Assembly: GCA_965204545.1 (NCBI GenBank)
Contig: CBDBFA010000003.1
Coordinates: 2,658,357 to 2,690,356 of the forward strand
Source: Opitutales bacterium
GTDB taxonomy: Bacteria > Verrucomicrobiota > Verrucomicrobiia > Opitutales > UBA2995
Length of the DNA: 32,000 bases
Direction: 5' to 3'
Part shown: one piece after another, positions 2 through 26,193 of the stretch
Numbering within the stretch: the first letter of the stretch is position 1
Layout: the number at the start of each line of letters is the position of its first letter
Notes under the pieces: model-generated
Database searches by the model: none
Told to the model about the DNA's origin: nothing
What the model saw: the letters and a program-made list of their open reading frames with translations, nothing else
Made by a program: the position numbers and the translations under genes

Positions 2-982
2 GGGTTGCAGGGCCGCTCGGATACCGGCCTGAGGGAAGCCTTTCCCTGGATCCGGGAGGGGAATCTCGGTTCTATCACCTGTATCCGCTGTCTCGTTTAC
101 GACCATCGCGCCAGTATCGGGAAACTGGATAAGCCGCTCGTACCACCCCCGTCTCTGGATTACAACTTGTGGTTGGGACCGGCCCTGGACGAGCCTATCT
201 ACCGACCCCAACTTCATTACGATTGGCATTGGGACTGGAATACCGGCAACGGGGATACGGGAAACCAGGGCGTACACGAACTTGATCTGGTCAGGTCGGT
301 TTTGGGGGATCCCGGCCATCCGCAACGCATATTCAGTTATGGCGGGCGCTTCGCCTGGGACGATGGGGGAAACACTCCCAATATGCAGAATACCCTCTTC
401 GATTGGGGAAATGGGATTCCCGTTCTCTTTGAATTGCGGGACATGTGGGCGACCCCGGAGTACGAGGCCGCTTCCCATTTCCGCGGGCATCGTTTTGGTA
501 TCGTGGTCGAGTGTGAAGGCGGAGAATTTCGGGGAGGCCGGGGAGGAGGCAGCGTGTACGATCACAACGGGGATCGCATGAAGGCGTTTAAAGGGGATGG
601 CGGATTCGATCATTTTCCCGCATTCATCCGCTCCGTGCGCAGCCGGAAGGAGTCCGATATGGCGTGCTCCTTAAGGGAGGGATACCTTTCCACGAGCCTC
701 TGTCATCAGGCCAATATTTCCATGCGGGTTGGGCAAACCGCCAGCAACGTCGAGGTCGACCACGCTATCGAACATAACCACCGTCTGACGGAATCGCATC
801 ACCGCCTGGTGAAGCACCTGAACGAGTGGGAAGTGGATTTCAGAAAGGAGCCCTGGGTTCTGGGACGGGTACTGGAATTCTCCCACAACCGGGAAACGTT
901 TACCGGATTGGAAAGTGATGCCGCCAACCGCTACCTCAAGCGCCGCTACCGAAAGAAATTCGCCGTTCCCGGGACGGTTTAG
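2..982 (+). CDS. Gfo/Idh/MocA-family oxidoreductase, C-terminal part (5' end upstream of window)
   Basis: The frame is open from the window edge to TAG 980-982. The 'M' at 5 in the ORF track is only an in-window TTG. The motif string LWLGPA...YDWHWDWNTGNGDTGNQGVHELD matches the pattern I recognise from PVC-group Gfo/Idh/MocA dehydrogenases. Recognised from memory, not searched. Confidence 0.7.
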   Translation, partial: GLQGRSDTGLREAFPWIREGNLGSITCIRCLVYDHRASIGKLDKPLVPPPSLDYNLWLGPALDEPIYRPQLHYDWHWDWNTGNGDTGNQGVHELDLVRSVLGDPGHPQRIFSYGGRFAWDDGGNTPNMQNTLFDWGNGIPVLFELRDMWATPEYEAASHFRGHRFGIVVECEGGEFRGGRGGGSVYDHNGDRMKAFKGDGGFDHFPAFIRSVRSRKESDMACSLREGYLSTSLCHQANISMRVGQTASNVEVDHAIEHNHRLTESHHRLVKHLNEWEVDFRKEPWVLGRVLEFSHNRETFTGLESDAANRYLKRRYRKKFAVPGTV

Positions 983-1042: not shown

Positions 1043-1464
1043 CTCTCGCCAAGCCGCCAAGCTGCCAAGTTCGCAAAGAGAAGGCACAAAGGGCTAGAAT
1101 GAACTGCAAAGCAGTTCCACTCCAAAGCCCAGTGTCGCGAAGCGCACACTGGGTAGAATGGGAAACAAATCACGAACCCCAAAGGGGTTCCACAAGAGGC
1201 GCTGGGGGCGCCAGTTTTCAGTGGAGAGTGGAGAGAAATAAATCGTGATCATGATCGTGATCGAATTGTAGGAGCAGCTTTGCGCCTCGGTTCCGCCAGA
1301 AGTTCTCCAAGCAGTCGCGGCATAAAGCCGCTAAGCTCGAATTTGGCTGGAATGAAAACCCACCCTATCATGCCCCTTTGCCAGAATTAATTCCTCATTC
1401 CTAATTGGCGCCTCCGGCGCCTCTTGTGGTTCCCTCTTTGCGATTCTTGGCGGCTTGGCGAGAG
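1043..1464. repeat. Intergenic mosaic A: ORF-less 422-bp element with nested inverted repeat modules between convergent genes
   Basis: Order on the + strand: CTCTCGCCAAGCCGCCAAG box 1043-1080; GGCACAAAGG 1082-1093; three small hairpins 1101-1190; CCACAAGA+GGCGCTgggGGCGCC 1191-1212; GTGGAGAG x2 1221-1235; GATC block 1241-1267; degenerate TGTAGGAGC hairpin pair about 1267-1340. These are followed in reverse orientation by TAGGAAT+GGCGCCtccGGCGCC 1391-1421 and the box 1432-1464. The 19-mers 1043-1061 and 1446-1464 are exact reverse complements. Confidence 0.9.
1101..1132 (+). repeat. 32-bp repeat GAACTGCAAAGCAGTTCCACTCCAAAGCCCAG (copy 1)
   Basis: Exact reverse complement of 27499-27530. Its first 17 nt form the hairpin GAACTGC-AAA-GCAGTTC. 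A sister hairpin GAACCCC-AAA-GGGGTTC lies at 1174-1190, and CCCAGTGT...ACACTGGG lies at 1128-1153. Confidence 0.9.
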
Positions 1465-1478
1465 TTTGCTCTACAGTC

Positions 1479-3548
1479 TCACAGGGTGGGGTTTTCGTAC
1501 CAGATGACGCCGAGGTTGTGTCGCTCCTCGCAGGTAAGGACATCGAGGTCGTTATCCCCGTCGAGGTCGATCAATTCGATGCGGTCGAATTTCACCCCTT
1601 CCTCCCTTCCGCTAATTTCGCGGGCTTCCCAATTCCCCATGGGACCCCTTTTCATCCAGAACACCCCGGTGGCGATTTCGGAGTTTTCACAGGTTACGAC
1701 GAGGTCGGGGACGCCGTCGCCGTCGATGTGGCCGATTGCTACAGCCTTGCCGGTACCGGCTTTCCCGGGCATGGGGATGGATTCCTCCTTCCAACGGGGG
1801 TGTTCCGCCCTTTCCCGGTAGGCTGCTACCAGGTCTCCGTCTCGCGTGGCGGCGATGAAATCATTCCATCCATCGGCATTGAGATCGCCGTAATCCATGA
1901 ACATCACCTCGGCTCCTTTTCCGGCCACATAGCGCTTCTTCCACGGTTGATACAACCTTTCCGGTCCTGGGTTTTCCAGCCACCAAATGCCCGATTCGGG
2001 GCCGTTTCTCTGCGAGAAGGCGATATCCGTAAGCCCATCCCCGTTCAGGTCGAGAGCACGCAAGGACATGACCCAGTCCGCTTGAGTCAGACGGCGCCAT
2101 TTCCAATCGGCCAAAACCTCTCCGTCTTCCGGGGCTTGCAGCCAACCAATTTGCCCTGTTGCGCCTTTTGAGCCGACCACCAGATCCACTCCCCGTTTTT
2201 GGTCAAGCTGAAGGGGCAGGGCAAACATCCACCGGCTTTCACTTTGCAAAGCCGGGAAGGCCCGGGTTATCCAAGGGGAGGCGGTAAGGTTTCCGCTCGG
2301 ACCGGACGGGGAAAAGTGAGCGTAGACGGTGCGTTCCTCTCCCTCGGTTGAGGATACGACATCGAGCTGGCCGTCGTGATTCAGGTCGATAAAGACGGCG
2401 TCCTCCGGAGACTTTACCTGGCCGGCTACGGCGTAAGACCACCGGTCCCGAGCTTTTTCCGGACCCGGGTTGAGGTATACCCGAACCTCGGATCCCTGTT
2501 CCCAGCCGGAGGCGATATCGGGCAGTCCATCCCCGTTGATATCCCCCAGGCGAACCCCATCGGCTCCCCGCGACCCGGCATCGATAGTGTGGCGCGGCCA
2601 GGGCTTGCCCTCGGCCTCACCGGGATAGCCCGTTGCCTTCAAATAATGACGGTAGGTGGAATTGTGATCCAGGGCCTCGCTACTCGTCAGGCTGTAGAGG
2701 TATACGCCGAAGCGCAATCGCAGGCGTTTCCCGGTCCTGATGGATTTCACCTGTTCTTCTCCCCTGCCAAAGTCCTGATCGGAAAAGGGATTGGCTGCGG
2801 TAAATCCGTAATCCCTTGAATGAAAGCGACTGGGCCGGAAATTTCTTGGATCGGGCATGAGCATGGCTCCGGTTCGTTTGCCCTGGATGAGGCCGGAGTA
2901 GTCGCACCAATCGGCCCGCCGGCCCCAGCCTTCGCTTTCGTTGACGTGGCCCCTGCTGTTGAGGATTTGACCGCTTCCTTCCTCCACTCGCAGGGGAGTT
3001 GCCATTCGTATCCCCACTCCCATTTCCTGCTGATCGCCAAAGTGGACGGTTTCAACGGCCAGAAAAGTGGAATCGAATTGAAAGAGGTATCCGTGAGGGA
3101 GGCGAAGGAGGGTGTGCTGGGCCCGCTCGGTACAGAACACACGGTCCTTGTGCCGAAAAATATTTTCCACGGTAAAATCTATGCGGTCGTGGCTCACCTC
3201 GGGTTCTTGCACAAAACCTCCGTGTCGGATTTCGGATTTGTTACGCCAGAAGTCCCCGTCATTGATTTTGCCGAAACCCATCCAGATTCCGGGATGCATG
3301 GTGTCGTGGTCCATGAGGTCGATGCCTTCCCGGGGAGGCCAGTGCCGCGTGACCTGAATTCCGTTGGGCGCCTTGATGTTGGAGAAGTGGGGACGTTTGA
3401 CCTTTTCGTCCCTATAGGCATAGGTGGTTACCAACAGGCTCCCGTCGTAGATCTCAATCCGGCCTTTCCCCGGCTCATGCCGGACCGCGAAATTGGCCGA
3501 GGACCAATTAGCGGCGGCCAGGAGTATAATGAAGATGAGCCGAAACAC
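1479..3548 (-). CDS. Secreted fusion protein: N-terminal PmoA-like (DUF6807) domain + C-terminal FG-GAP/VCBS repeat beta-propeller
   Basis: 689-aa ORF with a GTG start at 3548 and the signal-like N-terminus MFRLIFIILLAAANWSSA. The N-terminal half has KRPHFSNIKAPNG..DLMDHDTMHPGIWMGFGKINDGDFW, typical of the PmoA/DUF6807 family. The C-terminal half has at least 6 FG-GAP-type repeats (GDINGDGLPDI, DLNHDGQLDVV, DLNGDGLTDIAF, GDLNADGWNDFI, HIDGDGVPDLVV, DLDGDNDLDVLT). Confidence 0.75.
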   Translation of the reverse strand: MFRLIFIILLAAANWSSANFAVRHEPGKGRIEIYDGSLLVTTYAYRDEKVKRPHFSNIKAPNGIQVTRHWPPREGIDLMDHDTMHPGIWMGFGKINDGDFWRNKSEIRHGGFVQEPEVSHDRIDFTVENIFRHKDRVFCTERAQHTLLRLPHGYLFQFDSTFLAVETVHFGDQQEMGVGIRMATPLRVEEGSGQILNSRGHVNESEGWGRRADWCDYSGLIQGKRTGAMLMPDPRNFRPSRFHSRDYGFTAANPFSDQDFGRGEEQVKSIRTGKRLRLRFGVYLYSLTSSEALDHNSTYRHYLKATGYPGEAEGKPWPRHTIDAGSRGADGVRLGDINGDGLPDIASGWEQGSEVRVYLNPGPEKARDRWSYAVAGQVKSPEDAVFIDLNHDGQLDVVSSTEGEERTVYAHFSPSGPSGNLTASPWITRAFPALQSESRWMFALPLQLDQKRGVDLVVGSKGATGQIGWLQAPEDGEVLADWKWRRLTQADWVMSLRALDLNGDGLTDIAFSQRNGPESGIWWLENPGPERLYQPWKKRYVAGKGAEVMFMDYGDLNADGWNDFIAATRDGDLVAAYRERAEHPRWKEESIPMPGKAGTGKAVAIGHIDGDGVPDLVVTCENSEIATGVFWMKRGPMGNWEAREISGREEGVKFDRIELIDLDGDNDLDVLTCEERHNLGVIWYENPTL

Positions 3549-7105: not shown

Positions 7106-7322
7106 GGCGCCCAAGGGCGCCAATTAGGAATTAGGAGGAGTGATGGAGTAATGGAGTGTTGGAATGGTGGAATGGTGGAATGGTGGAATGGTGGAATGGT
7201 GGAATGGTGTGATTGGGCTATTGCGGTGCGTCTGAATTCTTCAAGAAAAAATTATGTGCCTTCACGAGAGTCTATTCCTCATTTCTCTCTCCCTCTCTGT
7301 GTCCTCTGTGATCTCTGTGGTT
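7106..7322. repeat. Intergenic mosaic C
   Basis: Modules: GGCGCCcaagGGCGCC 7106-7121; AATTAGGAATTAGGA 7122-7136; GGAGTGATGGAGTAATGGAGTG 7137-7158; (GGAATGGT)x6 7161-7208; reverse CACAGAG array CTCTGTGTCCTCTGTGATCTCTGTGGTT about 7293-7322. Confidence 0.9.
7161..7208. repeat. 8-bp microsatellite (GGAATGGT)x6
   Basis: Six perfect tandem units read directly from the sequence. Confidence 0.95.
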
Positions 7323-11171: not shown

Positions 11172-12161
11172 ATGATGTCATGCGTGTTTCGAGTTCCCTG
11201 TTTTCTGGCCGCTTTCGCGGCGGCTTCCTGTATTGGGGCGGAGTACTCCGGTCCCAAGCGCCTCAACAAAGCCATTGAGTTGTTGGAGGCGGGCCAACCC
11301 ATTTACTATACCTACGGCGCTCGTGGAAGCGACGCACCGCGCACCGGAGAAGAAATGTTCGAGCTGGGGAAATCCCTGTCCAAGACCTGGGCCGATCTGA
11401 TCATGTACGACATGGAGCACTCCGCCCTGGATTTCAATCTCCTGCGGTCCTTCATGTCCGGGTTGCTGGAGGGAGGACCAACTCCGAGCGGACACCGTAC
11501 ACCGGCCGTGGTCGTGACCTTGCCATTGATGGGCCTGGACCCCCAATCGGTGAAGATCAACGGCTGGATGGTTCAGCAGGCCCTCTCGGCCGGTATCCAC
11601 GGTGTACATTTGTGCCGGGCCCGCGACCCCGAGGCGGTGCGGGAGTTTGTCCGGCAAGCCCGCTACCCCGTGCATCGACAGGGACTCGATCTCAAAGGGG
11701 GGCTCAAGGAAGGTGTCCGCGGTATGGGCAGCGATGGTTTTGCCAGAAAGATCTGGGGGCTTACCCGCGAGGAATACTTTACGGTGGCCGATACCTGGCC
11801 CTTGAACCCCCGGGGGGAAATCATGCTGGGAGTGAAGATCGAGGATCCTCATGCCCTGCGCAACTGCGAGGCGACCGCGGCGGTGGCGGGACTTGCCTTT
11901 GTCGAGTCGGGCCCGCGCGACATGGGTTTGTCTTACGGATTCCTGGAGGGAAGGGCCGATCCCCCTTTGTCTCCCGAGGTCTTGGCGGCCAATGAGCGCG
12001 TTCTGGCCGCGGCGGACGTGGCCGGTGTGGCTTTTCTCAATAATGTTCTTCCCGACAACGTAATTTCCGGTATCGAGGGAGGAATCGATATAGCGGCCGG
12101 GGGCAGCCGGGAGGCGGCGGAGATCGGTCGCAAACACACGGGGCGGGTGATGCCCTGGTAA
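11172..12161 (+). CDS. HpcH/HpaI-family aldolase with an N-terminal signal/lipoprotein-like sequence
   Basis: Family pattern: LIMYDMEHSALD, ARYP...GVRGMG, MLGVKIEDPHAL, FVESGPRDMGLSYG. The start is placed at ATG 11172 (MMSCVFRVPCFLAAFAAASC-), after the upstream stop at 11152. Confidence 0.65.
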   Translation: MMSCVFRVPCFLAAFAAASCIGAEYSGPKRLNKAIELLEAGQPIYYTYGARGSDAPRTGEEMFELGKSLSKTWADLIMYDMEHSALDFNLLRSFMSGLLEGGPTPSGHRTPAVVVTLPLMGLDPQSVKINGWMVQQALSAGIHGVHLCRARDPEAVREFVRQARYPVHRQGLDLKGGLKEGVRGMGSDGFARKIWGLTREEYFTVADTWPLNPRGEIMLGVKIEDPHALRNCEATAAVAGLAFVESGPRDMGLSYGFLEGRADPPLSPEVLAANERVLAAADVAGVAFLNNVLPDNVISGIEGGIDIAAGGSREAAEIGRKHTGRVMPW

Positions 12162-12180: not shown

Positions 12181-13764
12181 ATGGAGTTGGCTTTTATCGA
12201 TTGGCTGGTAGTTTTCATCTACCTGGCGAGTATAGCCAGTATCGGTCTTTATGTCTCCCGTGGACAGCGGACCGTACGCAAATTTTTCACGGCGGACCGT
12301 TCCATCCCGTCCTGGGCGGTGGGGTTCACCCTGATGGCTACCATCGTGGGGAGCGGCACCTTTGTGGGACACCCCGGCACCGCCTACGGCAAAGGGATGA
12401 TACTGTTCCTCCCGCACATGTTGCTGCCGTTGGTGCTCCTGATAGTCGCGGTGTGGATCGTGCCCTTTTACCGGCGGGTGGTGCAGATGAGCGCCTACGA
12501 ATTTGTCGGCCGCCGGTTCGGACTGGGAAGTCGCATCTACACCTCGCTGGGATTTCTGGCCGACCGCACCTTCGACCTCGGAGTGACGCTGGTGACGACG
12601 GGCATAGCCCTGTATGTTTTTACTGGTTGGGACCCCATGCATGTCATTTTAGGCACCGGTCTGTTCACCTTGATTTACACCATGATCGGGGGCATCACGG
12701 CGGTGGCCTGGACCAACGTGGCTCAGGGAATCATTTTGTCGGGCGGAGCCGCGCTCATTCTGATCCGGGTCCTGTTTGCTCCGGAGATCGGGGATCCGGC
12801 GGGCATCATCAAGTCTTCCTGGGAAGCGGGCCGTTACAGTTTCGGTTCCTGGGAGTTTTCCTGGCGCATGCTCTTCGACCGGGAGACCACCACCATCTGG
12901 ATATTCTTCTTTGCATACTTCATTCAGTGGAGCCGCCGCTATATCACCGACCAGCACATCGTGCAGAACTACCTCATCGGCGAGTCGGACAAGGCGGCCA
13001 GCCGCGGCGCCTTGATGGGGGCGTTTTGCTGCCTGCCCATATTCTTCGCCTTCATGTTCATCGGGGGCAGTTTCTATGGTTTCTTCGATCTGATGCCCGG
13101 TGATGCCGGACCCGTCAAGGCGGATGAAGTCATGCCGTATTTTCTTTCCCACTACATTCCGGCGGGGGTATTGGGATTGATATTGGCCGCAATCCTGGCC
13201 GCGGCCATGTCCTCGGTGAGCGCCGATCTCAACAGTATCGCAACGGTCCTGACCACCGACTACTTCGGAAATATCTTTCCCAAAGTGAAAGAGAGAACCC
13301 GGCTCATATGCGGGAGGCTCTTTGTAATGATCGGGGGCTTATCAGCCTCCACCATTGCGATACTGCTGCTTCCCAAGGATGGATCGGTCCCCCTAATGGA
13401 ACGGGCCATAACCATTGCCACCATCATATCGGGCGGTACCCTGGGATTATTCTGTCTCGGTTTTCTGACCCGGCGCGCCACCCGCACAGGGGTCTATTAC
13501 GGAATTGCAGCATGTGTGATCTTTACCTCCTGGGCCCTCTTGTCCAAACCCGACGGGGAGGGCCAACGCATCCTGGATTTCGGGTTCAATTGGGAAATGA
13601 ATTCCATGCTCATCGGCCTGTTCGGTCACTTCATACTCTTTGGCGTGGGTTACCTGACAAGCCGCCTCTTCGGAGGTTACCGGCCGGCCTATGTGGAGGA
13701 ATTGACCATTCATCAAGTGAGAAAGCTGAGAAGAGATGAGGCGGAAAAGGCGCAAAAAACATAA
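12181..13764 (+). CDS. Sodium:solute symporter family (SSS) transporter
   Basis: 527 aa with an ATG start. The N-terminus is SSS-like (IDWLVVFIYLASIASIGLYVSRGQRTVRKFFTADRSIP), and about 13 hydrophobic segments follow. Confidence 0.8.
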   Translation: MELAFIDWLVVFIYLASIASIGLYVSRGQRTVRKFFTADRSIPSWAVGFTLMATIVGSGTFVGHPGTAYGKGMILFLPHMLLPLVLLIVAVWIVPFYRRVVQMSAYEFVGRRFGLGSRIYTSLGFLADRTFDLGVTLVTTGIALYVFTGWDPMHVILGTGLFTLIYTMIGGITAVAWTNVAQGIILSGGAALILIRVLFAPEIGDPAGIIKSSWEAGRYSFGSWEFSWRMLFDRETTTIWIFFFAYFIQWSRRYITDQHIVQNYLIGESDKAASRGALMGAFCCLPIFFAFMFIGGSFYGFFDLMPGDAGPVKADEVMPYFLSHYIPAGVLGLILAAILAAAMSSVSADLNSIATVLTTDYFGNIFPKVKERTRLICGRLFVMIGGLSASTIAILLLPKDGSVPLMERAITIATIISGGTLGLFCLGFLTRRATRTGVYYGIAACVIFTSWALLSKPDGEGQRILDFGFNWEMNSMLIGLFGHFILFGVGYLTSRLFGGYRPAYVEELTIHQVRKLRRDEAEKAQKT

Positions 13765-13772
13765 AAAGGAGT

Positions 13773-13809
13773 CTCTCGCAAAGCCGCCAAGAAGCAAAGG
13801 ACGCAAAGA
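13773..13809 (+). repeat. TIR-L of GxxExxY cassette (CTCTCGCAAAG/CGCCAAG box)
   Basis: See the cassette entry. The same box family occurs at 1043, 1432(rc), 3762, 22024(rc, degenerate), 22182(rc), 24102, 24294 and 25757. Confidence 0.9.
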
Positions 13810-14193
13810 ATGGATGAGAATTCAATTGGTAAGGTAGTTGTGGATGCGACTATTGCAGTGCATCGTGAGGTTGGTCCGGGATTGTTGGAGACCGTTTACG
13901 AATTGGTTCTGCTGGACGAACTGCAAAACCGGGGGTTGGTTGCTAAGCGCCAAGTACCCATCCCTATCCACATCCGTGGAATTCAATTCGATGAAGCATT
14001 CCGCGCTGACATCATAGTCGAAAACAAGGTCATTTTAGAATTGAAGTGCGTCGAGAAGACCAGCCCTGCACATAAGAAGCAACTTCTGACCTATTTAAAG
14101 CTCAGCGGAATGAAACTAGGGTATCTATTAAATTTTGCAGAAGCGATGATGAAGGACGGAATTACTCGGACCGTAAATGGGCTGCCTGAATAA
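13810..14193 (+). CDS. GxxExxY protein (PD-(D/E)XK nuclease-fold, TIGR04256-type)
   Basis: 127 aa. The name-giving motif G-LL-E-TV-Y occurs in GPGLLETVYE, and a PD-(D/E)XK-like RADIIVENKVILELK core follows. The gene is visibly AT-richer than its neighbours (by eye). Confidence 0.85.
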   Translation: MDENSIGKVVVDATIAVHREVGPGLLETVYELVLLDELQNRGLVAKRQVPIPIHIRGIQFDEAFRADIIVENKVILELKCVEKTSPAHKKQLLTYLKLSGMKLGYLLNFAEAMMKDGITRTVNGLPE

Positions 14194-14198
14194 TAGAA

Positions 14199-14235
14199 TC
14201 TTTGCGAACTTTGCCTCTTGGCGGCTTGGCGAGAG
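14199..14235 (-). repeat. TIR-R of GxxExxY cassette
   Basis: Its outer 19 nt (reverse complement CTCTCGCCAAGCCGCCAAG) are identical to 1043-1061 and to the reverse complement of 1446-1464. Confidence 0.9.
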
Positions 14236-14253
14236 GATATTCAAGAAGTGGAA

Positions 14254-15654
14254 ATGGCCACAAGAAGTACACAAAGCAAGGGACGGATTGGAATGAGGGC
14301 TAGGCATCCCAACATATTGCTGGTCATCGTCGATGATCTGTCGTCCTGCCAATTGGGTTGTTACGGTAGCGGGTACTACGAGACTCCGCATCTCGATGCT
14401 TTTGCCGGCAAGGGAATCCGCTTCGACCGGGCCTACGCCACGGGGCCGGTTTGCTCTCCGGCCCGGGCCGGGATTTACACGGGGCGCCATCCGGCCCGTC
14501 TGCATTTGACCAACTACATCCCCGGCACCGTTCCCGCCAATCCTCGTTTGATTACCCCGGATTGGCAAAAAGGACTGCCGGTTCACGAGCAAACCCTGGG
14601 AGACGTGTTCAAGGCTCATGGATACGAAACCGCTCACATTGGGAAATGGCACCTGGGGCAGGATTACCATTACCGGAGGCACCGGCCCATGGATCCGGAA
14701 TCCCATGGATTCGACGAAGTTTTTGTCACGCTAAAGCCGAAGCCCCACTTCGATCCCGAGGACGATGCCCACAATGTGCAGAAACTGACGGACCGGACCA
14801 TAGAGTTTCTCCGGCGGCCCCGCGACAAGCCTTTCCTGTGTGTGTTGGCTCACAACACCATTCACCGTCCGGAGATGGCTCCGTCGACTTATCTGGAACG
14901 CTTTGAAAACAAGGTTCCCCGGGAAAATGAGTGGATTCATCCAACCCAGGCGGCCATGGTGGCGGAGTTGGACGATGCGTTTGGTCGGTTGATGGAGGCT
15001 CTGGACCAGTCGGGTGGGCGTGAGGACACCATTGTCGTTTTTACCTCCGATCACGGCGCCTATGCCGACAGCGACGTTCGCAAACCCTGGCGAGGGGCCA
15101 AATCCGACCTCTATGAGGGCGGGCTTCGCGTGCCCTTCCTGATGCGGTGGCCCGGGGGCTTGGACGGGGGGCGCGTCTTTGAGGGAGCTGTTTCCCTGGC
15201 CGACCTGCTTCCCACATTGGCGGCCATGACGGGGGCGAGTTTACCGGAAGTAGAGCTGGATGGGATGAACCTGCTGCCCGTTATTTCCGGGGAAGGTGAA
15301 TTTGATGAGCCGAGAACTTTCTTCTGGCACTACCCGCACTATCATCACACCGGGCTCGGGCCTTGTGGTTCGGCCCTTCGCGGAAGACACAAGTTGATCG
15401 AATGGTTTGAAGGGAGTATGGGCAATTCAATCGAGGTTCCAGCTTTTGAACTCTTCGACCTGGAGGAGGATCCCTGGGAGGAAAACGACTTGGCCGGGGA
15501 ATATCCGGAGTTGGTGGAGACCCTGTCCGCCGCATTGCGGGACTGGCGCCGCCGGATCGGGGCTCAGGAAATGGCCCCGAATCCCCAATTTAATGAAGCG
15601 GCTGGCGGGCAGGCGTCCGAACCTCCGCCTGGCGACAGAATCCGAGCAATTTGA
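14254..15654 (+). CDS. Cys-type (formylglycine) sulfatase, no recognisable signal peptide
   Basis: Motifs: NILLVIVDDLSS and the C-x-P-x-R motif in GPVCSPARAGIYTGRHP; later VFTSDHG. The start is placed at ATG 14254 (MATRSTQSKG...); ATG 14293 is the alternative. The TTG at 14218 lies inside TIR-R. Confidence 0.8.
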   Translation: MATRSTQSKGRIGMRARHPNILLVIVDDLSSCQLGCYGSGYYETPHLDAFAGKGIRFDRAYATGPVCSPARAGIYTGRHPARLHLTNYIPGTVPANPRLITPDWQKGLPVHEQTLGDVFKAHGYETAHIGKWHLGQDYHYRRHRPMDPESHGFDEVFVTLKPKPHFDPEDDAHNVQKLTDRTIEFLRRPRDKPFLCVLAHNTIHRPEMAPSTYLERFENKVPRENEWIHPTQAAMVAELDDAFGRLMEALDQSGGREDTIVVFTSDHGAYADSDVRKPWRGAKSDLYEGGLRVPFLMRWPGGLDGGRVFEGAVSLADLLPTLAAMTGASLPEVELDGMNLLPVISGEGEFDEPRTFFWHYPHYHHTGLGPCGSALRGRHKLIEWFEGSMGNSIEVPAFELFDLEEDPWEENDLAGEYPELVETLSAALRDWRRRIGAQEMAPNPQFNEAAGGQASEPPPGDRIRAI

Positions 15655-16837: not shown

Positions 16838-19243
16838 ATGAAACGCATTTTTTTTCTCGCCGCTTTGTTACTGTTTTCAGGTCCTGTGTCCAGGGCTGAG
16901 ACGGTGGCTCTATGGTTGTTTGACGAGCAGGAAGGCCTTTACCCCAGTTGTCCGCTCTCGGATGCCACCCCCCGAGGCCTGCACCTGATTCTGGGGCGAG
17001 GTGGATCCATCGTGCCGGGGAAGTTTGGCGGGGCTCTTGCCGGGGTCGAGCCGAAGGATTGGGATCCGGTTTACGAACCCTCAAGTGAGGAAACCTACAT
17101 CCGCTTCGGACTGAAGGCTCCGGAACTCCAACCGGGTCGCACGGTGGAACCTTTGACCTGGTTCAATAACCGCTTTGCCGCCCTGTTCACCAATGGGAAC
17201 GGCCACTTGCGGCGGCTCGAGTTTGAAAATGCCACCCGGACACCCCTTAATCTCGGGCCGGAGGACTGGACGGTAGAATTCTGGTTGCAGCTCGACGGAA
17301 AGTCCAATGGGGAGGGAGTGGTATTCGAAATTGGCAGCGGACCACGGGGAGAAAATGATCGGGTGACCCGGCTTTCGGTCATACCGGAGAAGAATTTGCT
17401 CCGTTTCCATAACCATACAGGTAGTGCTACGGTGGAATTTCGCTCCAAGGAAGCTATGGCAAAGGGTTGGAATCACTATGCCCTCACCCATGGCAAAGGC
17501 CGGCTGATCTGGTATCTCAACGGGGAAGCGGTGGCGGAAGCAACGGCCCGGGTGAAGGCGCTGCCCTTTGGGGAAGAGGCCTACTTTACCGTGGCCCGGG
17601 ACGGACTTTGGAACCGACCCCTAACCGCCGCAATCGATGAATTGCGCTTTTCCGACAGTGTCGATTATACCGGGTCTTTTGCTCTTCCCGACAGTTACTC
17701 GCGCCTGCACCGGGCAGGCCGGAAGCCTTATGCCTTGAAGAAGGGAGGGGAACTCCTCTATCCGGGAAACAAAGCTCCTTCCGGAGTGGTGGAAATGGGG
17801 ACCCGCAAGCATCTCTTTCTCGATGACGTCCTTCTGGCCGAGAATGAGGGGGTGCGGCTGATCCCGCATCCGGCCCGATTGGAAGAAATTGTCCTGGATA
17901 GGGGAATCGGTTGGTCCACAGTGATCGAGGGTGAAGACGGACTCATCCGGCTTTACGGTGAAGGCGCGGGTGGCGTCGCCGTTTGGACCTCGCGGGATGG
18001 ACTTCATTTCGAAGCCCCGGATTTGGGAAGTGGCCGGGCCAACCAGGTCATTCCCGGACCGGCCAAAGCCGGTTCCGTTATCATCGATCCGAATGGTCCG
18101 CCCGAGGAACGGTGGAAAGCGCTGGTAGGGTTGCACGACCGGGGAGGCTGGTATATCTGGACGTCACCCGACGGGTGGTCTTTCCAACGCAGTGAAACGG
18201 CCGCGCTTCCCTTCTGGCCCGGGTCGGCTTCGACCCTGTATTACGATGACCAGCGGCAAGTGTATCTGGGGCATCATCGGTCCGATTACGGTTCGACTCC
18301 CTCCGGGAAGACCGAGCGGTATTTTGTGCGGACGGAAGTCACGGACCTTTTCGGGGCTTGGGAATTTGAGCCGACGACGCGGGAAAAGGCATTGCGAATC
18401 CACCGGGACCGGCCCCTGAAAGTGGAGCAGTGGGATCCCTGGTGGTTGGACAATGGGCCGTTGGCCCCTCCGGGATTCGGTATCGAGTTTCCCATCGCCA
18501 TGGGCCCGGATCCGGATCTGGATCCGGTGGCGACCGATCTCTACAACACCCGGGCCATAAAATACCCATGGGCTGAAGACACCTACCTGGCCTTTCCTCT
18601 GTGGTTTTTCCATTACCATGGAGACGGACCGCCCACTCGGCAGATACTGGCCCACCCCAGCCGGGAAATGGGTACCGGCATGGTGGAACCGCAGTTGGCG
18701 GTCAGCCGCGATGGATTGAAATGGAAACGGTATCCGCGGCCGGCCTACCTGCCCATCGGAGACCATAAGGGTTTTCCGGTGAGGCGGCCTTATCTGGCCC
18801 ATGGCATGGTCAGGCGGGGAAATGAAATTTTCCAGTATTCCTACACGCGAGCCTCCTATCACGATGCCTGGACCGATACCGCGCCCAGCCCGGTTACCCA
18901 TCGGCTGACCCAGCGATTGGACGGGTTTGTTTCCCTGCGCACCCCATATACCGGAGGCAGCCTCACCACTTTGCCCCTTACCTTTACAGGAAACCGTTTG
19001 GTTTTGAACATCGACACCGGGGCCGCTGGTTACGCCCAGGTGGGTATCCTCGATGAAGGAGGAATCGCCCTACCGGGTTACGCATTGGAGGATTGTATCT
19101 ACATCAATACCAATTCGGTAGCCCACACCGTGGAGTGGTTGGAAAAGGGCACGGACCTCACCGCCCTGGCTGGAAAAACGGTTCGGCTGGTTTTCCGCAT
19201 GCGGGGCACGGATCTCTACGCCATGCAATTTTTGGAGGATTAG
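16838..19243 (+). CDS. Secreted LamG/concanavalin-like domain + Asp-box beta-propeller + C-terminal beta-sandwich protein (paralog 1; candidate glycoside hydrolase of unassigned family)
   Basis: 801 aa with signal MKRIFFLAALLLFSGPVSRA. The LamG-type region has WTVEFWL...GEGVVFEIGSGPRGEND...IDELRFS. S-x-D-G-x-x-W/F boxes are present (TSRDGLHFE, TSPDGWSFQ, VSRDGLKWK), as is IIDPNGPPE. The C-terminal sandwich reads QRLDGFVS...LTFTGNRLVLNIDT...VRLVFRMRGTDLYAMQF. Confidence 0.6.
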   Translation: MKRIFFLAALLLFSGPVSRAETVALWLFDEQEGLYPSCPLSDATPRGLHLILGRGGSIVPGKFGGALAGVEPKDWDPVYEPSSEETYIRFGLKAPELQPGRTVEPLTWFNNRFAALFTNGNGHLRRLEFENATRTPLNLGPEDWTVEFWLQLDGKSNGEGVVFEIGSGPRGENDRVTRLSVIPEKNLLRFHNHTGSATVEFRSKEAMAKGWNHYALTHGKGRLIWYLNGEAVAEATARVKALPFGEEAYFTVARDGLWNRPLTAAIDELRFSDSVDYTGSFALPDSYSRLHRAGRKPYALKKGGELLYPGNKAPSGVVEMGTRKHLFLDDVLLAENEGVRLIPHPARLEEIVLDRGIGWSTVIEGEDGLIRLYGEGAGGVAVWTSRDGLHFEAPDLGSGRANQVIPGPAKAGSVIIDPNGPPEERWKALVGLHDRGGWYIWTSPDGWSFQRSETAALPFWPGSASTLYYDDQRQVYLGHHRSDYGSTPSGKTERYFVRTEVTDLFGAWEFEPTTREKALRIHRDRPLKVEQWDPWWLDNGPLAPPGFGIEFPIAMGPDPDLDPVATDLYNTRAIKYPWAEDTYLAFPLWFFHYHGDGPPTRQILAHPSREMGTGMVEPQLAVSRDGLKWKRYPRPAYLPIGDHKGFPVRRPYLAHGMVRRGNEIFQYSYTRASYHDAWTDTAPSPVTHRLTQRLDGFVSLRTPYTGGSLTTLPLTFTGNRLVLNIDTGAAGYAQVGILDEGGIALPGYALEDCIYINTNSVAHTVEWLEKGTDLTALAGKTVRLVFRMRGTDLYAMQFLED

Positions 19244-19306
19244 GCACAAAGGCACAAAGGCACAAAGGCACAAAGGCACAAAGGCACAAAGGCACAAAGG
19301 CACAAA
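19243..19306 (+). repeat. 8-bp microsatellite (GGCACAAA)x8
   Basis: Eight perfect units. The first G is the last base of the TAG stop (19241-19243) of paralog 1. The array abuts the GTG of the four-helix-bundle remnant. Confidence 0.95.
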
Positions 19307-19360
19307 GTGAGCGGTGTTAGAGCATATCAAGATTTGATCGTTTGGCGAGAGTCCATTCCA
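19307..19360 (+). pseudogene. Truncated N-terminal remnant of a four-helix-bundle (23S rRNA IVS-protein family, TIGR02436-like) gene
   Basis: GTG AGC GGT GTT AGA GCA TAT CAA GAT TTG ATC GTT TGG CGA GAG translates to VSGVRAYQDLIVWRES. This matches the family's characteristic N-terminal Y(R/Q)DL(I/L)VWQK motif. No helical body follows. It is about 85% identical over ~52 bp to 24242-24292 (hand count). Confidence 0.55.
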
Positions 19361-19430: not shown

Positions 19431-21941
19431 ATGAAGCATCATTTATTTAAAGTTTATGGGATCGCTTTGGGCCTGATTCATGGGGCAATTTGTTTTGTAT
19501 CCGCGGCGGAGACGGTGGCCTTGTGGCTTTTCGACGAGCCGGAGTGGCTGTATCCGAGCCACACTGTCGACTCCAGCGCCGGACTGGATGCGCCCATGGT
19601 CCTGGGGCTGGGGGGAACCTTGACTGCAGGTAAGTGGGGCCGCGCTTTGTCGACCGTTCCCCATCCCCCGGTAGAGATTCCCGAGACGGGTGAGGCCACC
19701 GCCTCTCTCACGCCATTGCCCATACCACCGGGTCGAACTCAGGTTCCTCTCACCTGGCACAACGCCGACTTTGCCGCGCTGATGACGGGGGGGGAACGCC
19801 ACCTGCGCAAACAGGTAGGTTTTGTCAATCCTACCGAGACCGATCTGAACCTGGGGGATTTCAATTGGACGGTGGAGTTTTGGCTGAAGGGGAATCCAAT
19901 CCGCCAGGGAGAGGGAGTCGTCTTCGAAATCGGGACGGGACCGAGAGGGGAGAACGACACCTATACCCGACTGACGGTCGATACAACTGAGGGCAGCTTT
20001 GGATTCCTAAATGCCTCATCCGGAAACGAGGTTTCCTTGGGGGATTCAACCAAGGCATTCCAGGACGGGCAGTGGCATCATTTCGTCCTGACGTTTGATT
20101 CCAGCCGGGATGTTCTGACCCTATTCTCCGATGGCGAGCGAGTGGATCGTAAGAAAATCGAACTGAAGCGACTGCCAAGCGGCGACGAATCTTACATGAG
20201 CGTAGGGCGAAATGGGTTCTGGGGGGATCCATTGCCGGGCATTTTGGACGAGTTGCGCTTTTCCAGGGGATTGGTTTACGAAGATGGATTCCAACCGCCG
20301 GGAAGCTTTGCTCCTTCCGTTCCCGAAGTTTCCCTGATGAAGGGACCGTCCCTTCGCTTCGGACCGGATTCTCCAAAATCCGGCAGGGTGGATCTCGGTG
20401 GATCAAAGCACGTTTTCTGGGACGATTCCCTCTTTGAATCCAGCCGGGGAATCACCTTCAATACCCATCAGCCCAAATACATAACCCGGGTGGTTGAAGG
20501 ATTACTGGGACAGGTCCGCAAGCACCTGACCGTTATTGAGGATGAGCAGGGAATAATCCGCATCTACCATGGGGTGGCGGACGACTACCTGGGCATTCGC
20601 ATTTCCCATGATGGAGTGAACTTTGTAGCTCCGGACACCGGTTACCATTGGAAGGGCGACAAGAATATCGTCATTCCCGAAGCGGCGCCACTGGGACGTC
20701 CCATTATCGATCCGAATGGACCGCCCGAGCACCGGTGGAAGTATGTCAGCGGCCTGGAAGGCCGGGGCGTTTACCTCTACACCTCCCCGGACGGTTGGAA
20801 ATGGCAGCGCCAGCGCACTGCGGTTCTACCTTTCCGTTCCGGCTCCCAATCCAGTTTGTTCTACGACGATCAGCGGCAATTGTATGTGGGTTATCACCGC
20901 ACCGGACATCCCATGACCCCGGGAGGGGGAACGAGCCGGCAGTTCGTCCTTTCCGAAACGGCCGATATCTACTCCCCATGGCCGGTCGATCCTCTTACCC
21001 AGAAGGAAGCACTCGAGATCGCGCAAACGCGACCGCTTCGATTGCCCATTCCCTGGTGGATGGACAACGGACCCCTTACGCCGGGCGACTTCAGCGTGGA
21101 AATGCCAACTGTATTCGCTCCGGACCTTTCAGTCGATCCCGGGGGGAGCGGGATCTATGTTCCCAAGGGCATGAAGTACCCTTGGGCCGAGGATGCTTAC
21201 ATCTCTTTTCCGGCCATGTATTATGATTACGAAGAGCCACATCAGCCGTTGAACCGGCGCATTCTTTATCACCCATCCTATGAGAAAGGTTCGGGAACCA
21301 TGGAATCGCATGTGGCGATAAGCCGCGACGGAGTCAAATGGAAGCGGTTCATGCGGCCGGCCTACATACCGATGGATCGCTATCAGGACCGCGACATCCA
21401 TCAGATTTACATGTCCGAGGGAATGATTCGGCGCGGCGATGAAATCTGGCAGTACTTCTACGGGCAGGAGGAGTATCATTCCCCGGCCGTCCGCAACAAG
21501 GCCGGCAACGGAATTTATCGGGCGGTGCAGCGTCTGGATGGTTTTGTCTCGGCCGACACTCCTTACGACCAGGAAGTAACCGTGGTGACCCGTCCTCTAA
21601 CCTTTGATGGGAACCGGCTGGAGCTGAATATCGATACCCGCGCCCTCGGGTATTGCCTGGTTGGAATCCTGGATGAAGAAGGAAAGACCATTCCCGGATA
21701 TGAGGCCGAGAACTGCATCTGGATCAACGGCAACTTTATCCGGCATGAGGTGGAATGGTTGAACCCTGAGGCCGACCTCCGCGGGCTGATCAGGTTGAGG
21801 GCCAATCAAATGCGGCATTCCACCCTCAGCCTCGAGGGAATAACCAAGTCCGACTTGGGACACCTTGCCGGAAAAACCATTCGCCTGCAGTTCAAGATGC
21901 GTGGAGCCAGCCTCTACGCCATGCAGTTTGTGGAAGATTAA
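19431..21941 (+). CDS. Secreted LamG-like + Asp-box beta-propeller + beta-sandwich protein (paralog 2)
   Basis: 836 aa, collinear with 16838-19243. Shared blocks: AETVALWLFDE, WTVEFWL, GEGVVFEIGTGPRGEND, DELRFS, IIDPNGPPEHRWK, TSPDGWKWQR, YDDQRQLY, PWWMDNGPL, KYPWAEDAY, SRDGVKWKR, QRLDGFVS, LYAMQFVED. It carries an extra ~25-aa insertion near the C-terminus. Confidence 0.6.
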   Translation: MKHHLFKVYGIALGLIHGAICFVSAAETVALWLFDEPEWLYPSHTVDSSAGLDAPMVLGLGGTLTAGKWGRALSTVPHPPVEIPETGEATASLTPLPIPPGRTQVPLTWHNADFAALMTGGERHLRKQVGFVNPTETDLNLGDFNWTVEFWLKGNPIRQGEGVVFEIGTGPRGENDTYTRLTVDTTEGSFGFLNASSGNEVSLGDSTKAFQDGQWHHFVLTFDSSRDVLTLFSDGERVDRKKIELKRLPSGDESYMSVGRNGFWGDPLPGILDELRFSRGLVYEDGFQPPGSFAPSVPEVSLMKGPSLRFGPDSPKSGRVDLGGSKHVFWDDSLFESSRGITFNTHQPKYITRVVEGLLGQVRKHLTVIEDEQGIIRIYHGVADDYLGIRISHDGVNFVAPDTGYHWKGDKNIVIPEAAPLGRPIIDPNGPPEHRWKYVSGLEGRGVYLYTSPDGWKWQRQRTAVLPFRSGSQSSLFYDDQRQLYVGYHRTGHPMTPGGGTSRQFVLSETADIYSPWPVDPLTQKEALEIAQTRPLRLPIPWWMDNGPLTPGDFSVEMPTVFAPDLSVDPGGSGIYVPKGMKYPWAEDAYISFPAMYYDYEEPHQPLNRRILYHPSYEKGSGTMESHVAISRDGVKWKRFMRPAYIPMDRYQDRDIHQIYMSEGMIRRGDEIWQYFYGQEEYHSPAVRNKAGNGIYRAVQRLDGFVSADTPYDQEVTVVTRPLTFDGNRLELNIDTRALGYCLVGILDEEGKTIPGYEAENCIWINGNFIRHEVEWLNPEADLRGLIRLRANQMRHSTLSLEGITKSDLGHLAGKTIRLQFKMRGASLYAMQFVED

Positions 21942-24073: not shown

Positions 24074-24193
24074 ATGTGATCGTGATAGAATTAAGAAAAG
24101 CCTCTCGCAAAGCTCGCCAAGAACGCTGAGAAAAGGCACAGAGGCGCCGGGGGCGCCAATTAAGAATTAGGAATTAGGAATGGGGAATGAAAA

Positions 24194-24241
24194 GGCACAA
24201 AGGCACAAAGGCACAAAGGCACAAAGGCACAAAGGCACAAA
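24194..24241 (+). repeat. 8-bp microsatellite (GGCACAAA)x6
   Basis: Six perfect units that directly abut GTG 24242. Confidence 0.95.
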
Positions 24242-24292
24242 GTGAGCGGGTTCAGAGCATATCGAAATTTAATTGTTTGGCAAAAGGGAAGG
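24242..24292 (+). pseudogene. Truncated N-terminal remnant of a four-helix-bundle (TIGR02436-like) gene
   Basis: It translates to VSGFRAYRNLIVWQKGR, the family's N-terminal motif. The sequence then runs into a CTCTCGCAAAG box and hairpin repeats instead of the helical body. Confidence 0.55.
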
Positions 24293-24313
24293 ACTCTCGC
24301 AAAGAGCACGCAA

Positions 24314-24383
24314 GTAGGAGCGGCTTTAAGCCGCGATCCCATGAAACAGCCTCACCGCAATCGCGGGATAAACCCGCTCCTAC
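24314..24383 (-). repeat. 70-bp double-hairpin element (TGTAGGAGCGG.. type), copy 1
   Basis: GTAGGAGCGGCTTTAAGCCGCGAT ...spacer... ATCGCGGGATAAACCCGCTCCTAC. Its reverse complement aligns along its full length with 25852-25920. Strand is assigned relative to copy 2. Confidence 0.85.
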
Positions 24384-24474
24384 AGCTTGATACCACTACT
24401 CCCTTCTCCCCATTCTTAATTCTTCATTCCTAATTCCTAATTGGCGCCCACGGCGCCTCTTATCCGTGGTTTAT

Positions 24475-25650
24475 TCAGCTTAAGGCCTTTTCCAGGTTTT
24501 GCCAATTGGCTATCAGGTGCCCTCTGCTTTGGTGAAGTGTGTCGTCACCCGAATAAATCAGGAGGGTCTTGTCGTTCTTTCCATGATCATGGCGCTTCCA
24601 GTAATCGAGACCGGCAAAGAAGGAAGCGTTCAAGGTCTGCCCTGATTTAACTTCGATGGCCAGGCGCATTGGCCCTTGATCAAGCAGAAAGTCTATTTCG
24701 TTTTTGTGACTATCTCTCCAAAAAAACAAGTTCGAAGGCTCTGCGCGGTTGTATTGACACTTGAGGATTTCCGAAAAGACCAGGGTTTCAAAGAGGTAGC
24801 CGCGAAGCGGGTGGTGCTCCAACTGATATGGTTCCCTCATGCCAAGCAACCAGGATGCCAAACCCGTATCCACAAAGTACAGCTTGGGCCTCTTGACCAA
24901 GCGCTTGTTAAAATTGCTATGGTAGGGTTTCAACAGATGGATAACGTAGCTGGCCTCCAGCACCGATAGCCAACTCTTGGCCGTTTTGTAATCAATCGAG
25001 GCCTCATTACAGAGCGCCCCAATATCGAGGATTCTACCCGTTCGTCCGGCGCAAAGGCGCAGAAATGTCTGAAAGCTCGATAGATCCCGAATGTTAATCA
25101 ATTGCCTGACGTCACGCTCCAGATAGGTTTGGACATAGGCCCCAAACCAGAGACGCGGATTGGCCCCATGGATCGCGGTGGAGGGGTAAAGGCCTTTCCA
25201 TAGGATCTCATTGGCATTAACCGGCTTTTCCAACTCGCCCTTCGTTTCGCCAAAACTCAATGGCAGAAGCTTCAGGTAACCCGCCCTCCCCGCCAATGAT
25301 TGGGAGATCTTTTGGTCGAGTAGAAATTGATGGGAACCCGTCAGGATGAACCTTCCATTCCATCGTTTCCTATCTACGATTCCTTGCAAATAGGAGAAAA
25401 GCTCGGGCGCTTGTTGCACCTCGTCGATGACCGCGCCTTCGCCTAGAGCAGACAGGAATCCTCTAGGGTCGGAGTGGGCTGCCTCGCGAAGGTCCGGATC
25501 CTCCATGGAAACGTACGGTTTCTCCGGAAACGCAGTTTGAGCAAGCGTGGTCTTTCCGGATTGACGAGGCCCGGTGATGGCAACGACTGGAAACGTTTGA
25601 GCAAGCTCTTCACACGCGGTTTGAGCTATTCTCGGAACAATTTTGTGCAT
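24475..25650 (-). CDS. AAA+ ATPase with C-terminal DUF4143-type domain (AAA_14/DUF4143 family)
   Basis: Walker A is GPRQSGKTTLAQ, Walker B-like is GAVIDEVQ, and the length and layout are typical of the family. I prefer ATG 25650 (MHKIVPRIAQ...) over TTG 25680. The gene is visibly AT-richer than the sugar genes (by eye). Confidence 0.75.
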   Translation of the reverse strand: MHKIVPRIAQTACEELAQTFPVVAITGPRQSGKTTLAQTAFPEKPYVSMEDPDLREAAHSDPRGFLSALGEGAVIDEVQQAPELFSYLQGIVDRKRWNGRFILTGSHQFLLDQKISQSLAGRAGYLKLLPLSFGETKGELEKPVNANEILWKGLYPSTAIHGANPRLWFGAYVQTYLERDVRQLINIRDLSSFQTFLRLCAGRTGRILDIGALCNEASIDYKTAKSWLSVLEASYVIHLLKPYHSNFNKRLVKRPKLYFVDTGLASWLLGMREPYQLEHHPLRGYLFETLVFSEILKCQYNRAEPSNLFFWRDSHKNEIDFLLDQGPMRLAIEVKSGQTLNASFFAGLDYWKRHDHGKNDKTLLIYSGDDTLHQSRGHLIANWQNLEKALS

Positions 25651-25690
25651 ATTTTGGAATAAACTCCAAAATTTACACAAGTCAATGGAG

Positions 25691-26022
25691 AAAAGGATGA
25701 AGGCTGAAGGAGGAAGGCTAAAAATAAATCGTGATGGTGATCGAAAGGAGAATTGACTCTCGCAAAGCTCGCTAAGAACGCTAAGAAGTGCCGGGCGCGC
25801 GAATTACGAGATTTCATTCTCCAACATCAATTGATAACCTATTACAAAACTGTAGGAGGGGGTTTATCCCCCGATTGCAGTGAGGCTATTTAAAAGATCG
25901 GGGGATAAACCCCCTCCTACAGTTCTCCAAATCACCATCCCATGAACATTTTCTCCTTCCTCCCCCATTCCTAATTCCTGATTGGCGCCCCCGGCGTCTC
26001 TCATCTGTGTAATCCGTGGTCG
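25691..26022. repeat. Intergenic mosaic J
   Basis: Modules: AAGGATGAAGGCTGAAGGAGGAAGGCTAAA 25691-25724; GATC-type block 25727-25748; CTCTCGCAAAGCTCGCTAAGAACGCTAAGAAG 25757-25788; double hairpin 25850-25922; reverse TAGGAAT+GGCGCCcccGGCGTC 25962-25998; reverse CACGGAT 26002-26022. Confidence 0.9.
25850..25922 (+). repeat. 73-bp double-hairpin element, copy 2 (perfect 26-bp arms)
   Basis: CTGTAGGAGGGGGTTTATCCCCCGAT (25850-25875) and ATCGGGGGATAAACCCCCTCCTACAG (25897-25922) are exact reverse complements. The spacer is 21 nt, TGCAGTGAGGCTATTTAAAAG. Confidence 0.95.
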
Positions 26023-26051
26023 TTTCTTTTTTTCTTTCTCCAACTCTGGAA

Positions 26052-26188: not shown

Positions 26189-26193
26189 CGTTC

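Follow-up and report, generated by a model that had tools for sequence, protein, structure and literature searches.

Between two convergent genes of a sponge-associated Opitutales bacterium lies a 422-bp unit without an open reading frame (ORF), at positions 1043-1464 of the 32,000-nt stretch of DNA analysed here (the window), where it makes up most of a 496-bp spacer. The question raised by this locus is what kind of DNA the unit is and how it came to stand there. The original prediction, made from the letters alone, had proposed either a non-autonomous derivative, similar to a MITE (miniature inverted-repeat transposable element), of a gene-bearing cassette elsewhere in the window, or two back-to-back 3′ trailers of the convergent genes. 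We hold, with moderate confidence, that the unit is a lineage-specific nested stack of non-autonomous hairpin repeats, comparable to repetitive extragenic palindromes (REPs) and bacterial interspersed mosaic elements (BIMEs), and that its outer arms may be mobilised by GxxExxY, the small nuclease-fold protein encoded in that cassette. The 422-bp stretch has the look of selfish repeat DNA, not of a conserved trailer.

A nested unit inserted between two genes

The outer 19-mers of the unit, CTCTCGCCAAGCCGCCAAG at 1043-1061 (+) and 1446-1464 (-), are exact reverse complements of each other (0 mismatches), as had been described. Allowing up to 3 mismatches, the only other matches in the 32 kb were at 13773-13791 (1 mismatch) and 14217-14235 (0 mismatches), none being expected by chance (0 in 100 shuffles). 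These two matches are the flanks of the GxxExxY gene in the cassette, which lies 12.7 kb away and has arms of the same lineage-specific subfamily as the unit, so that the predicted identity of the termini with the right cassette arm was borne out. The likeness between arms exceeds the 19-mer: 1035-1079 and 14199-14243 show 91% complementarity along 45 nt, 8 of which lie outside the CTCTCG motif with which each arm (the “box”) starts. The second inverted pair described inside the outer arms is present as 1185-1216 versus 1403-1434 (32 nt, 84%), and within it we again found the GATC block and the degenerate TGTAGGAGC pair. The parts of the unit, together with the cassette, are as follows.

1043-1080 (+): left outer arm (box), CTCTCG CCAAGCCG CCAAGCTG CCAAGTTC GCAAAGAG, with four tandem 8-mers; pairs with 1434-1464
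1081-1092: continuation of the left outer arm, AAGGCACAAAGG
1093-1195 (+): hp95 module, B subfamily, with three small hairpins at 1101-1117, 1128-1153 and 1174-1190
1185-1216 (+): inner left arm, CCACAAG plus the hairpin GGCGCTGGGGGCGCC (1198-1212); a terminator-like match with a weak T tail
1217-1241 (+): short GGAGAGTG-type 8-mer repeats; related arrays lie at 7134-7213 and 27343-27398
1242-1264 (unstranded): GATC block (ATCGTGATCATGATCGTGATCGA), a hexamer repeat found in six window spacers
1267-1345 (unstranded): degenerate GTAG-tagged REP doublet (TGTAGGAGC.../...GCGGCATAAAGCCGC...), the centre of the stack
1388-1434 (-): inner right arm, AATTCCTCATTCCTAATT plus the hairpin GGCGCCTCCGGCGCC (1407-1421) plus TCTTGTGG; depth 60-130x that of the flanks
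1434-1464 (-): right outer arm (box), reverse complement CTCTCG CCAAGCCG CCAAGAATC GCAAAGAG
13773-14235 (+): GxxExxY cassette (PD-(D/E)XK, PF13366/TIGR04256), with the gene at 13810-14193 and arms at 13773-13809 and 14199-14235

With four 8-mers against three, the left outer arm is one unit longer than the right. The hp95 module, which usually forms inverted A/B pairs and stands here as one arm, is the highest-copy part of the unit. At the centre, TGTAGGAGC stands at 1267-1275 with a degenerate partner near 1314-1341, and this pair aligns with intact doublets at 24305-24392 and 25848-25924, where there is a perfect 28-nt REP doublet (25848/25897). Because the TGTAGGAG units are GTAG-tagged REPs of the kind already described, the central pair can be read as a decayed doublet similar to a REP doublet forming hairpins (REPIN). 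No coding remnant was detected in 983-1478 by tblastn with 81 GxxExxY proteins (best E 0.38), in agreement with the earlier reading of the sequence.

The 422-bp locus is not an assembly artefact. Short-read contigs from one run (X1) tile 600-1126, 1135-1417 and 1395-2000 with 0 differences, both gene-to-arm junctions were confirmed by an independent study (X2), and near-identical pieces of the interior were recovered from runs X5 and X12. Assembler word depth was 20-1269 inside the unit versus 6-9 in the flanks and varied by module, from about 21 at 1305-1351 to 229 at 1070-1116, 536 at 1399-1445 and 1269 at 1117-1163, while the interior contig 1135-1417 had single-copy depth; the same depth profile was seen in four further runs. 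From this, we concluded that the parts are high-copy and that the 422-bp combination itself is single-copy. Word depth over hp95 was 70-700x that of the flanks, and module copy number was of the order of 10^2 per genome equivalent, which is an upper bound because the runs are communities. Contigs representing other copies join about 1262-1266 directly to about 1387-1397, and thus lack the central REP doublet, and a contig from run X16 joins 1078 to 1446 via only 25 nt, which gives a short hairpin with the same arms.

Thirteen copies of hp95 were identified in the Opitutales loci examined. They have three conserved hairpins in common, with compensatory changes at 4 pairs and with U-G intermediates on one strand. 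The hp95 subfamilies differ fully in the stem of the first hairpin (GAACTGC/GCAGTTC versus ACGCC/GGCGT, at the same place), and A and B usually occur as inverted pairs of about 220-250 bp, for which we obtained no Rfam match.

Comparison of orthologous convergent gene pairs in relatives, a check suggested in the original prediction, established that the unit is derived. We compared FG-GAP gene orthologues and their flanks from the window, from loci L119/L120 (88% DNA identity) and L121 (87%), and from the outgroup locus L275 (66%). Between the FG-GAP and Gfo genes, the convergent spacer is as short as 6 bp in L119/L120 and 7 bp in L275, whereas the window has 496 bp there and L121 has 722 bp; gene identities gave the tree (window,(L119,L121)),L275. 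Given this tree and the spacers of 6-7 bp, the compact state is ancestral, and the unit, which is absent from these orthologous sites, is inserted DNA. The 722-bp fill in L121 has the same vocabulary and no box, and is bounded by an inverted repeat, GTGTGGTGTCCCGGAAATT, at 12083-12104 and 12770-12793; as far as the sequences tell, the fills would be either separate gains, or one gain followed by loss. A decayed look-alike of GTGTGGTGTCCCGGAAATT just outside the left box arm of the window hints at an older shared layer; the stretch concerned, 1013-1042 (CAGTGTGGTTTGATGGTCCCTCTGAATTTC), may be a decayed copy of this terminal repeat, a tentative identification made by eye.

Other spacers also differed in length among these relatives, with 408, 563 and 9 bp between the lyase and FG-GAP genes and 30, 30 and 977 bp between the DHDPS and amidohydrolase genes (window, L119 and L121, respectively), and blastn alignments between relatives ended at gene ends. 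The GxxExxY cassette is itself polymorphic, being absent from locus L002, of an Opitutales MAG (metagenome-assembled genome; 91-92% identity), where the left arm is kept and the equivalent of window 13797-14260 is lacking. The stretch missing from L002 (at 2835-2843) comprises the gene, the right arm and 26 nt beyond it, and its breakpoints share 9-nt microhomology (CAAGAAGCA/CAAGAAGTA).

Polarity, transcripts and folding

Every larger spacer of the window is a mosaic of one common set of short modules: the box; AGAGGCGCCGGGGGCGCCAAT hairpins with GGAATTAGGAAT; GATC hexamers; TGTAGGAG hairpins; and 8-mer arrays of GGCACAAAG, CACAGAG, CACGAAG, CACGGAT, GGAGTGAT and GGATGAAGG. We mapped eleven module types in 14 Opitutales loci, where they form 39 clusters, and observed that the left modules of a cluster almost always point right and the right modules left. 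Transitions of the “><” kind numbered 33 versus 11 of the “<>” kind, and 31 of the 39 clusters had no “<>” transition, a value reached by 0 of 5000 orientation shuffles. This inward polarity was kept in convergent, tandem (both directions) and divergent spacers, independent of gene orientation. It follows that these spacers generally share the nested layout, which the 422-bp unit displays in its cleanest form.

The same observation bears on the proposal of two back-to-back trailers, according to which a box and a GGCGCC hairpin end or stabilise the transcript of each gene. A box followed by a GGCGCC hairpin does follow each gene, terminator-like matches in 900-1600 number 3 versus 0.7 expected, and REPs lie mostly downstream of genes and can act in 3′ untranslated regions (PMC3733652). 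However, the same modules occur with the same polarity in tandem and divergent (promoter) spacers, and the two-trailer explanation fails because this polarity ignores gene direction. The orthologous gene pairs, moreover, manage with spacers of 6 and 7 bp, L121, the sister lineage, lacks a box here, and the T tails of the terminator-like matches are weak. Short box hairpins in other phyla lacked a 3′ bias as well, with 11 in tandem, 5 in divergent and 4 in convergent spacers, near background by crude ORF-based gene calls. We thus consider this part of the original prediction very improbable.

A different role in RNA is conceivable, in which the unit would resemble an intervening sequence (IVS): the stem formed in read-through RNA would be cut by RNase III, insulating or destabilising the convergent mRNAs, and mobility would be secondary. 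Folding predictions give a very stable stem-loop whichever strand is used (-201.6 and -200 kcal/mol, with z about -9.6, and z -7.9 for DNA), and the U-G intermediates of hp95 fall on one strand. The architecture matches that of the Coxiella IVS, which is 428 nt long, has a 28-bp terminal stem and tandem heptamers before an ORF of about 120 aa, and is excised by RNase III (PMC4990558). IVSs of 23S rRNA in general, like the elements studied here, are of about 100-450 nt with a long terminal inverted-repeat stem and tandem repeats before an optional ORF of about 120 aa, and occur in ORF-less and ORF-bearing forms with a patchy distribution (PMC4990558). In contrast to these, the 422-bp unit lies between protein genes and not in an rRNA helix, and the ORF associated with its arms encodes GxxExxY rather than the four-helix-bundle S23p. 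Rfam gave no family for the window at gathering thresholds, for 18 short-hairpin loci, or for 950-1500 even at E<=1, and a run search turned up no run of known RNA type that holds the sequence of the unit. The A/C sites of the arms show no covariation, and the equal predicted folding of both strands, which is what a DNA-level palindrome would give, fits DNA symmetry as well as it fits RNA. An IVS-like element therefore seems unlikely to us.

Box hairpins and GxxExxY genes across phyla

We searched species-representative genomes with the box pattern CTCTCGCMAAG-N2-3-GCCAAG; the counts of boxes and box-bounded units given here refer to the matches listed by that search. Boxes were present in Opitutales, Planctomycetota, Acidobacteriota, many Gammaproteobacteria, Bacteroidota, Chloroflexota, Nitrospirota and others. 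An extended repeat or an inverted partner accompanied 100 of 136 box matches, and for 62 of the 136, across phyla, the inverted partner lay within 700 nt. At least 39 box-bounded units were identified, of 61-626 bp, mostly 61-191 bp and ORF-less, with the GxxExxY gene only in units of 347, 463 and 626 bp. In view of this range, the closeness in size between the unit (422 bp) and the cassette (463 bp), to which the original prediction had drawn attention, is not meaningful. The palindrome ended sharply at CTCTCG in 24/39 units, and arms within a unit were more alike than arms of different units (0/5000 permutations reached the observed value). There was no sign of target-site duplication, direct repeats of at least 4 nt being present in 3/39 units versus a null mean of 3.7, and none was seen at 1043/1464, where the flanks read ...GAATTTC and TTTGCTC....

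GxxExxY genes are linked to such arms well beyond this lineage. Among 72 metagenome GxxExxY genes with enough flank, 41 had a pair of inverted 8-mer arms, one on either side, and 62 had at least one arm, compared with 2.6% of control windows, and the arm usually ended 0-12 nt before the start codon. Three types of arm were distinguished (CGCAAAG/CGCCAAG; CACGGAG/CACAAAG/CACAGAG; CGCAGAG), which places the other 8-mer modules of the window in the same superfamily. The protein has 29 invariant columns among 23 sequences, and a survey of PD-(D/E)XK proteins gives the function of PF13366 as “unknown” and reports multiple transfers between divisions. The window also holds pure octanucleotide arrays at 19244-19307, 24194-24242 and 7134-7213 ((GGCACAAA) x8 and x6, and (GGTGGAAT)n), whose octanucleotides are of the same kind as the arm 8-mers around GxxExxY genes in other organisms.

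Locus L027 holds a second ORF-less unit, of 326 bp, with arms 92-96% identical to the cassette arms of the window; together with the short hairpin on the X16 contig, it indicates that short-loop, filled-loop and gene-bearing forms of one arm variant coexist in the lineage or community. The repeat that the cassette shares with L027 (4431-4450) reaches 19 nt outside CTCTCG, at 13753-13772 (CAAAAAACATAAARAGGAGT), and there provides the last codons and the stop of a sodium:solute symporter gene (12181-13764).

Some further observations concern the arrangement and spread of these elements. In seven loci (L195, L201, L205, L253, L248, L249 and L266), GxxExxY genes are not always within one hairpin: some stand between two complete hairpins or between direct-orientation arms, and some arms run straight into the left arm of the next unit. 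L207/L210 carry, at about 1090-1430, the frameshifted remains of a GxxExxY gene (…NENEIGKIV…) immediately upstream of an intact copy; in some organisms, GxxExxY cassettes do decay in place. A 62-bp box hairpin and its flanks are common to a Pseudomonadota MAG (L043) and a Bathyarchaeota MAG (L044), which suggests mis-binning or very recent transfer. A phage vector for the box was considered and rejected, since the 73 viral-contig matches were nearly all coding coincidences, with only about 6 real-looking boxes; so was a second cargo gene, as ORFs other than GxxExxY beside the arms look spurious. Neither the box nor the function of GxxExxY is the subject of any paper in the literature searched, and matches to the box sequence were primer coincidences only.

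These results allow the MITE proposal to be assessed in its classical form, in which one 422-bp deletion derivative of the GxxExxY cassette would have moved by cut-and-paste through its 19-bp terminal inverted repeats. Much of the description on which that proposal was built held up: the unit is ORF-less, has nested palindromes and perfect 19-bp termini that match the cassette arms, and is missing from the orthologous sites of L119 and L275, while decaying GxxExxY copies (L207/L210) and an ORF-less unit with cassette-like arms (L027) do exist. Like MITEs, the unit is intergenic, lacks an ORF and is variably present among relatives, and its terminal inverted repeats also belong to a gene-bearing element. 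The unit nevertheless differs from MITEs in having no target-site duplication, no family of copies of the same length and no known transposase. The composite is single-copy, and its interior is not a deletion product of the cassette: it has no cassette-derived sequence and is made up of modules that are each repeated independently. Measured against the empty site, the insertion amounts to about 490 bp rather than 422, and no transposase is known for the box family, the product of the cassette that shares the termini being a PD-(D/E)XK protein to which no transposase role has been assigned. Since target-site duplication is lacking both here and in the family, and since boxes in this lineage are mostly unpaired, the unit is not a classical MITE, an explanation we regard as having very little likelihood. 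Nor did a paired element of fixed size emerge: unpaired boxes predominate in the Opitutales loci and unit length is unconstrained, a pattern that the original prediction had itself set against this idea.

In the way it would operate, the unit comes closest to REP/REPIN clusters and BIMEs, and true GTAG REPs are among its parts. A catalogue of GTAG REPs by Di Nocera et al. includes Opitutus terrae families, and REP dimers within longer palindromes, as well as mosaic repeat clusters, are on record (PMC3733652). Like REPs and REPINs with their REP-associated tyrosine transposases (RAYTs), the box family comprises short extragenic palindromes, some of which occur as inverted, hairpin-forming doublets (PMC3116915, PMC3733652). 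In both, ORF-less copies are numerous and a single small gene, present in few copies, has these repeats on either side; singlets can be regarded as remnants, target-site duplication is lacking, and close relatives differ in their copies. Unlike REPs, the box arm starts with CTCTCG, has no GTAG/CGTC tag, is built of tandem 8-mers and is common to several phyla, whereas REPs are lineage-specific; the gene flanked by the box encodes PD-(D/E)XK GxxExxY rather than an HUH/Y1 protein, and no RAYT gene is present in the window.

With BIMEs and with the mosaic elements of Neisseria, the spacers share a make-up of extragenic clusters assembled from few short modules in variable combinations, with high strain variability (PMC2817692, PMC3733652). 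BIMEs are made of regularly spaced, alternating REPs, whereas the clusters here are nested, with 33 “><” versus 11 “<>” transitions, and the module vocabulary is not that of BIMEs. The BOX elements of Streptococcus are another mosaic intergenic repeat cluster. Integron attC sites, which have the core-site consensus RYYYAAC ... GTTRRRY (R''/R'), were rejected as a match, as arms of the form CTCTCG(CMAAGNNG)n have no GTTRRRY core (an integrase was not searched for). The box arms lack defining features of each of REP/REPIN, BIME, MITE, IVS and attC.

The nested stack of hairpin repeats is inserted in what used to be a gap of 6-7 bp between the two convergent genes. The outermost layer of the stack is an ORF-less box hairpin unit with arms of CTCTCG and tandem 8-mers, inside which stand one hp95 arm and a composite bounded by GGCGCC hairpins, with a decayed REP doublet of the GTAG type at the centre. 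We infer that a simple box hairpin may have had its loop filled by hairpin repeats with a preference for inserting at the apex of palindromes already present, or close to it; in another scenario, the box arms might have moved as a unit carrying old passenger repeats. In both cases, the modules of the left half all point right and those of the right half all point left. The GxxExxY nuclease is a candidate for the trans-acting factor that would recognise, cut or copy the arms, as RAYTs do for REPs, because the relation between box and GxxExxY resembles that between REP/REPIN and RAYT. Any effect on the host, for instance by a long stem in read-through transcripts or by a DNA cruciform, would be incidental.

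Several observations weigh against this reading. The outer arms are the best kept (19/19), the inner pair retains 84% complementarity and the central doublet is the most decayed, which is the reverse of a simple chronology in which the innermost layer is youngest, unless the box-bounded composite moved whole or the arms were kept alike by selection or conversion. Boxes in the Opitutales loci are mostly solo. At the A/C sites of the 8-mers, the two arms vary independently of each other (odds ratio 0.94), so that perfect pairing is not maintained at these sites. GxxExxY is no known transposase, its single-sequence structural model had a predicted local distance difference test (pLDDT) score of 39.6, and a profile search of PDB sequences revealed no solved relative (nothing below E = 0.3). 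No insertion or excision of the box unit was caught, and eight runs contained no empty-site contig at 1042|1465, although contigs drop rare variants.

By analogy, and more tentatively, box hairpins and their relatives (CTCTCR plus tandem CRCNRAG 8-mers) could form with GxxExxY a cross-phylum system resembling REPIN/RAYT, based on a different nuclease superfamily, in which insertion at the apex would lead to inward polarity and the 422-bp unit would be a box hairpin with a filled loop; this extension we think possible but doubtful. No description of a cross-phylum box/GxxExxY system was found in the papers searched. The box family is the more interesting part of these findings than the single 422-bp unit, in that the outer arm is a non-coding sequence common to several phyla and in close association with a small protein of nuclease fold whose sequence is strongly conserved. 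Were this association functional, the role of GxxExxY would be the recognition or cutting of hairpins of 8-mer repeats, and the pair would represent a second independent partnership of repeat and enzyme, domesticated or selfish, beside REP and RAYT.

Neighbouring genes and further features of the window

The public contigs closest to the window are Opitutales MAGs, and sponge and marine metagenomes make up most of the runs in which the sequence occurs. The genes and spacers around the unit, and the hp95 copies in the related loci, are as follows.

5-982 (+): Gfo/Idh/MocA oxidoreductase gene, with its stop codon at 982
983-1042 (unstranded): left spacer, from the Gfo/Idh/MocA stop to the unit; single-copy, word depth about 1x
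1465-1478 (unstranded): right spacer of 14 nt, from the unit to the stop codon of the DUF6807/FG-GAP gene
1479-3548 (-): gene for a DUF6807 plus FG-GAP protein
L119 9507-9607 and 9655-9768: hp95
L121 7238-7483, 12269-12514 and 14800-15046: hp95

The spacers of these sponge-symbiont genomes consist of a small repertoire of hairpin modules, which break short-read assemblies, create spurious ORFs and can provide real genes with their stop codons. The Laminin_G_3 genes at 16838-19243 and 19431-21941, two tandem paralogues with direct repeats of 72-89%, are separated by a spacer that holds the (GGCACAAA)8 array and a solo left-pointing box. An ATPase gene (AAA_14 plus DUF4143) at 24475-25680 (-), whose G+C content of 0.48-0.53 is below that of its surroundings, is flanked by large module clusters at 24074-24474 and 25681-26193, both of which start with a right-pointing box. 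Two more palindromes of the window have no relation to the box vocabulary. One, upstream of an enolase-superfamily gene, is a perfect inverted repeat of 34 nt (26052-26085/26155-26188) whose arms are 69 nt apart, and the other is an inverted repeat of 46 nt at 76% (29008-29053/29143-29188).

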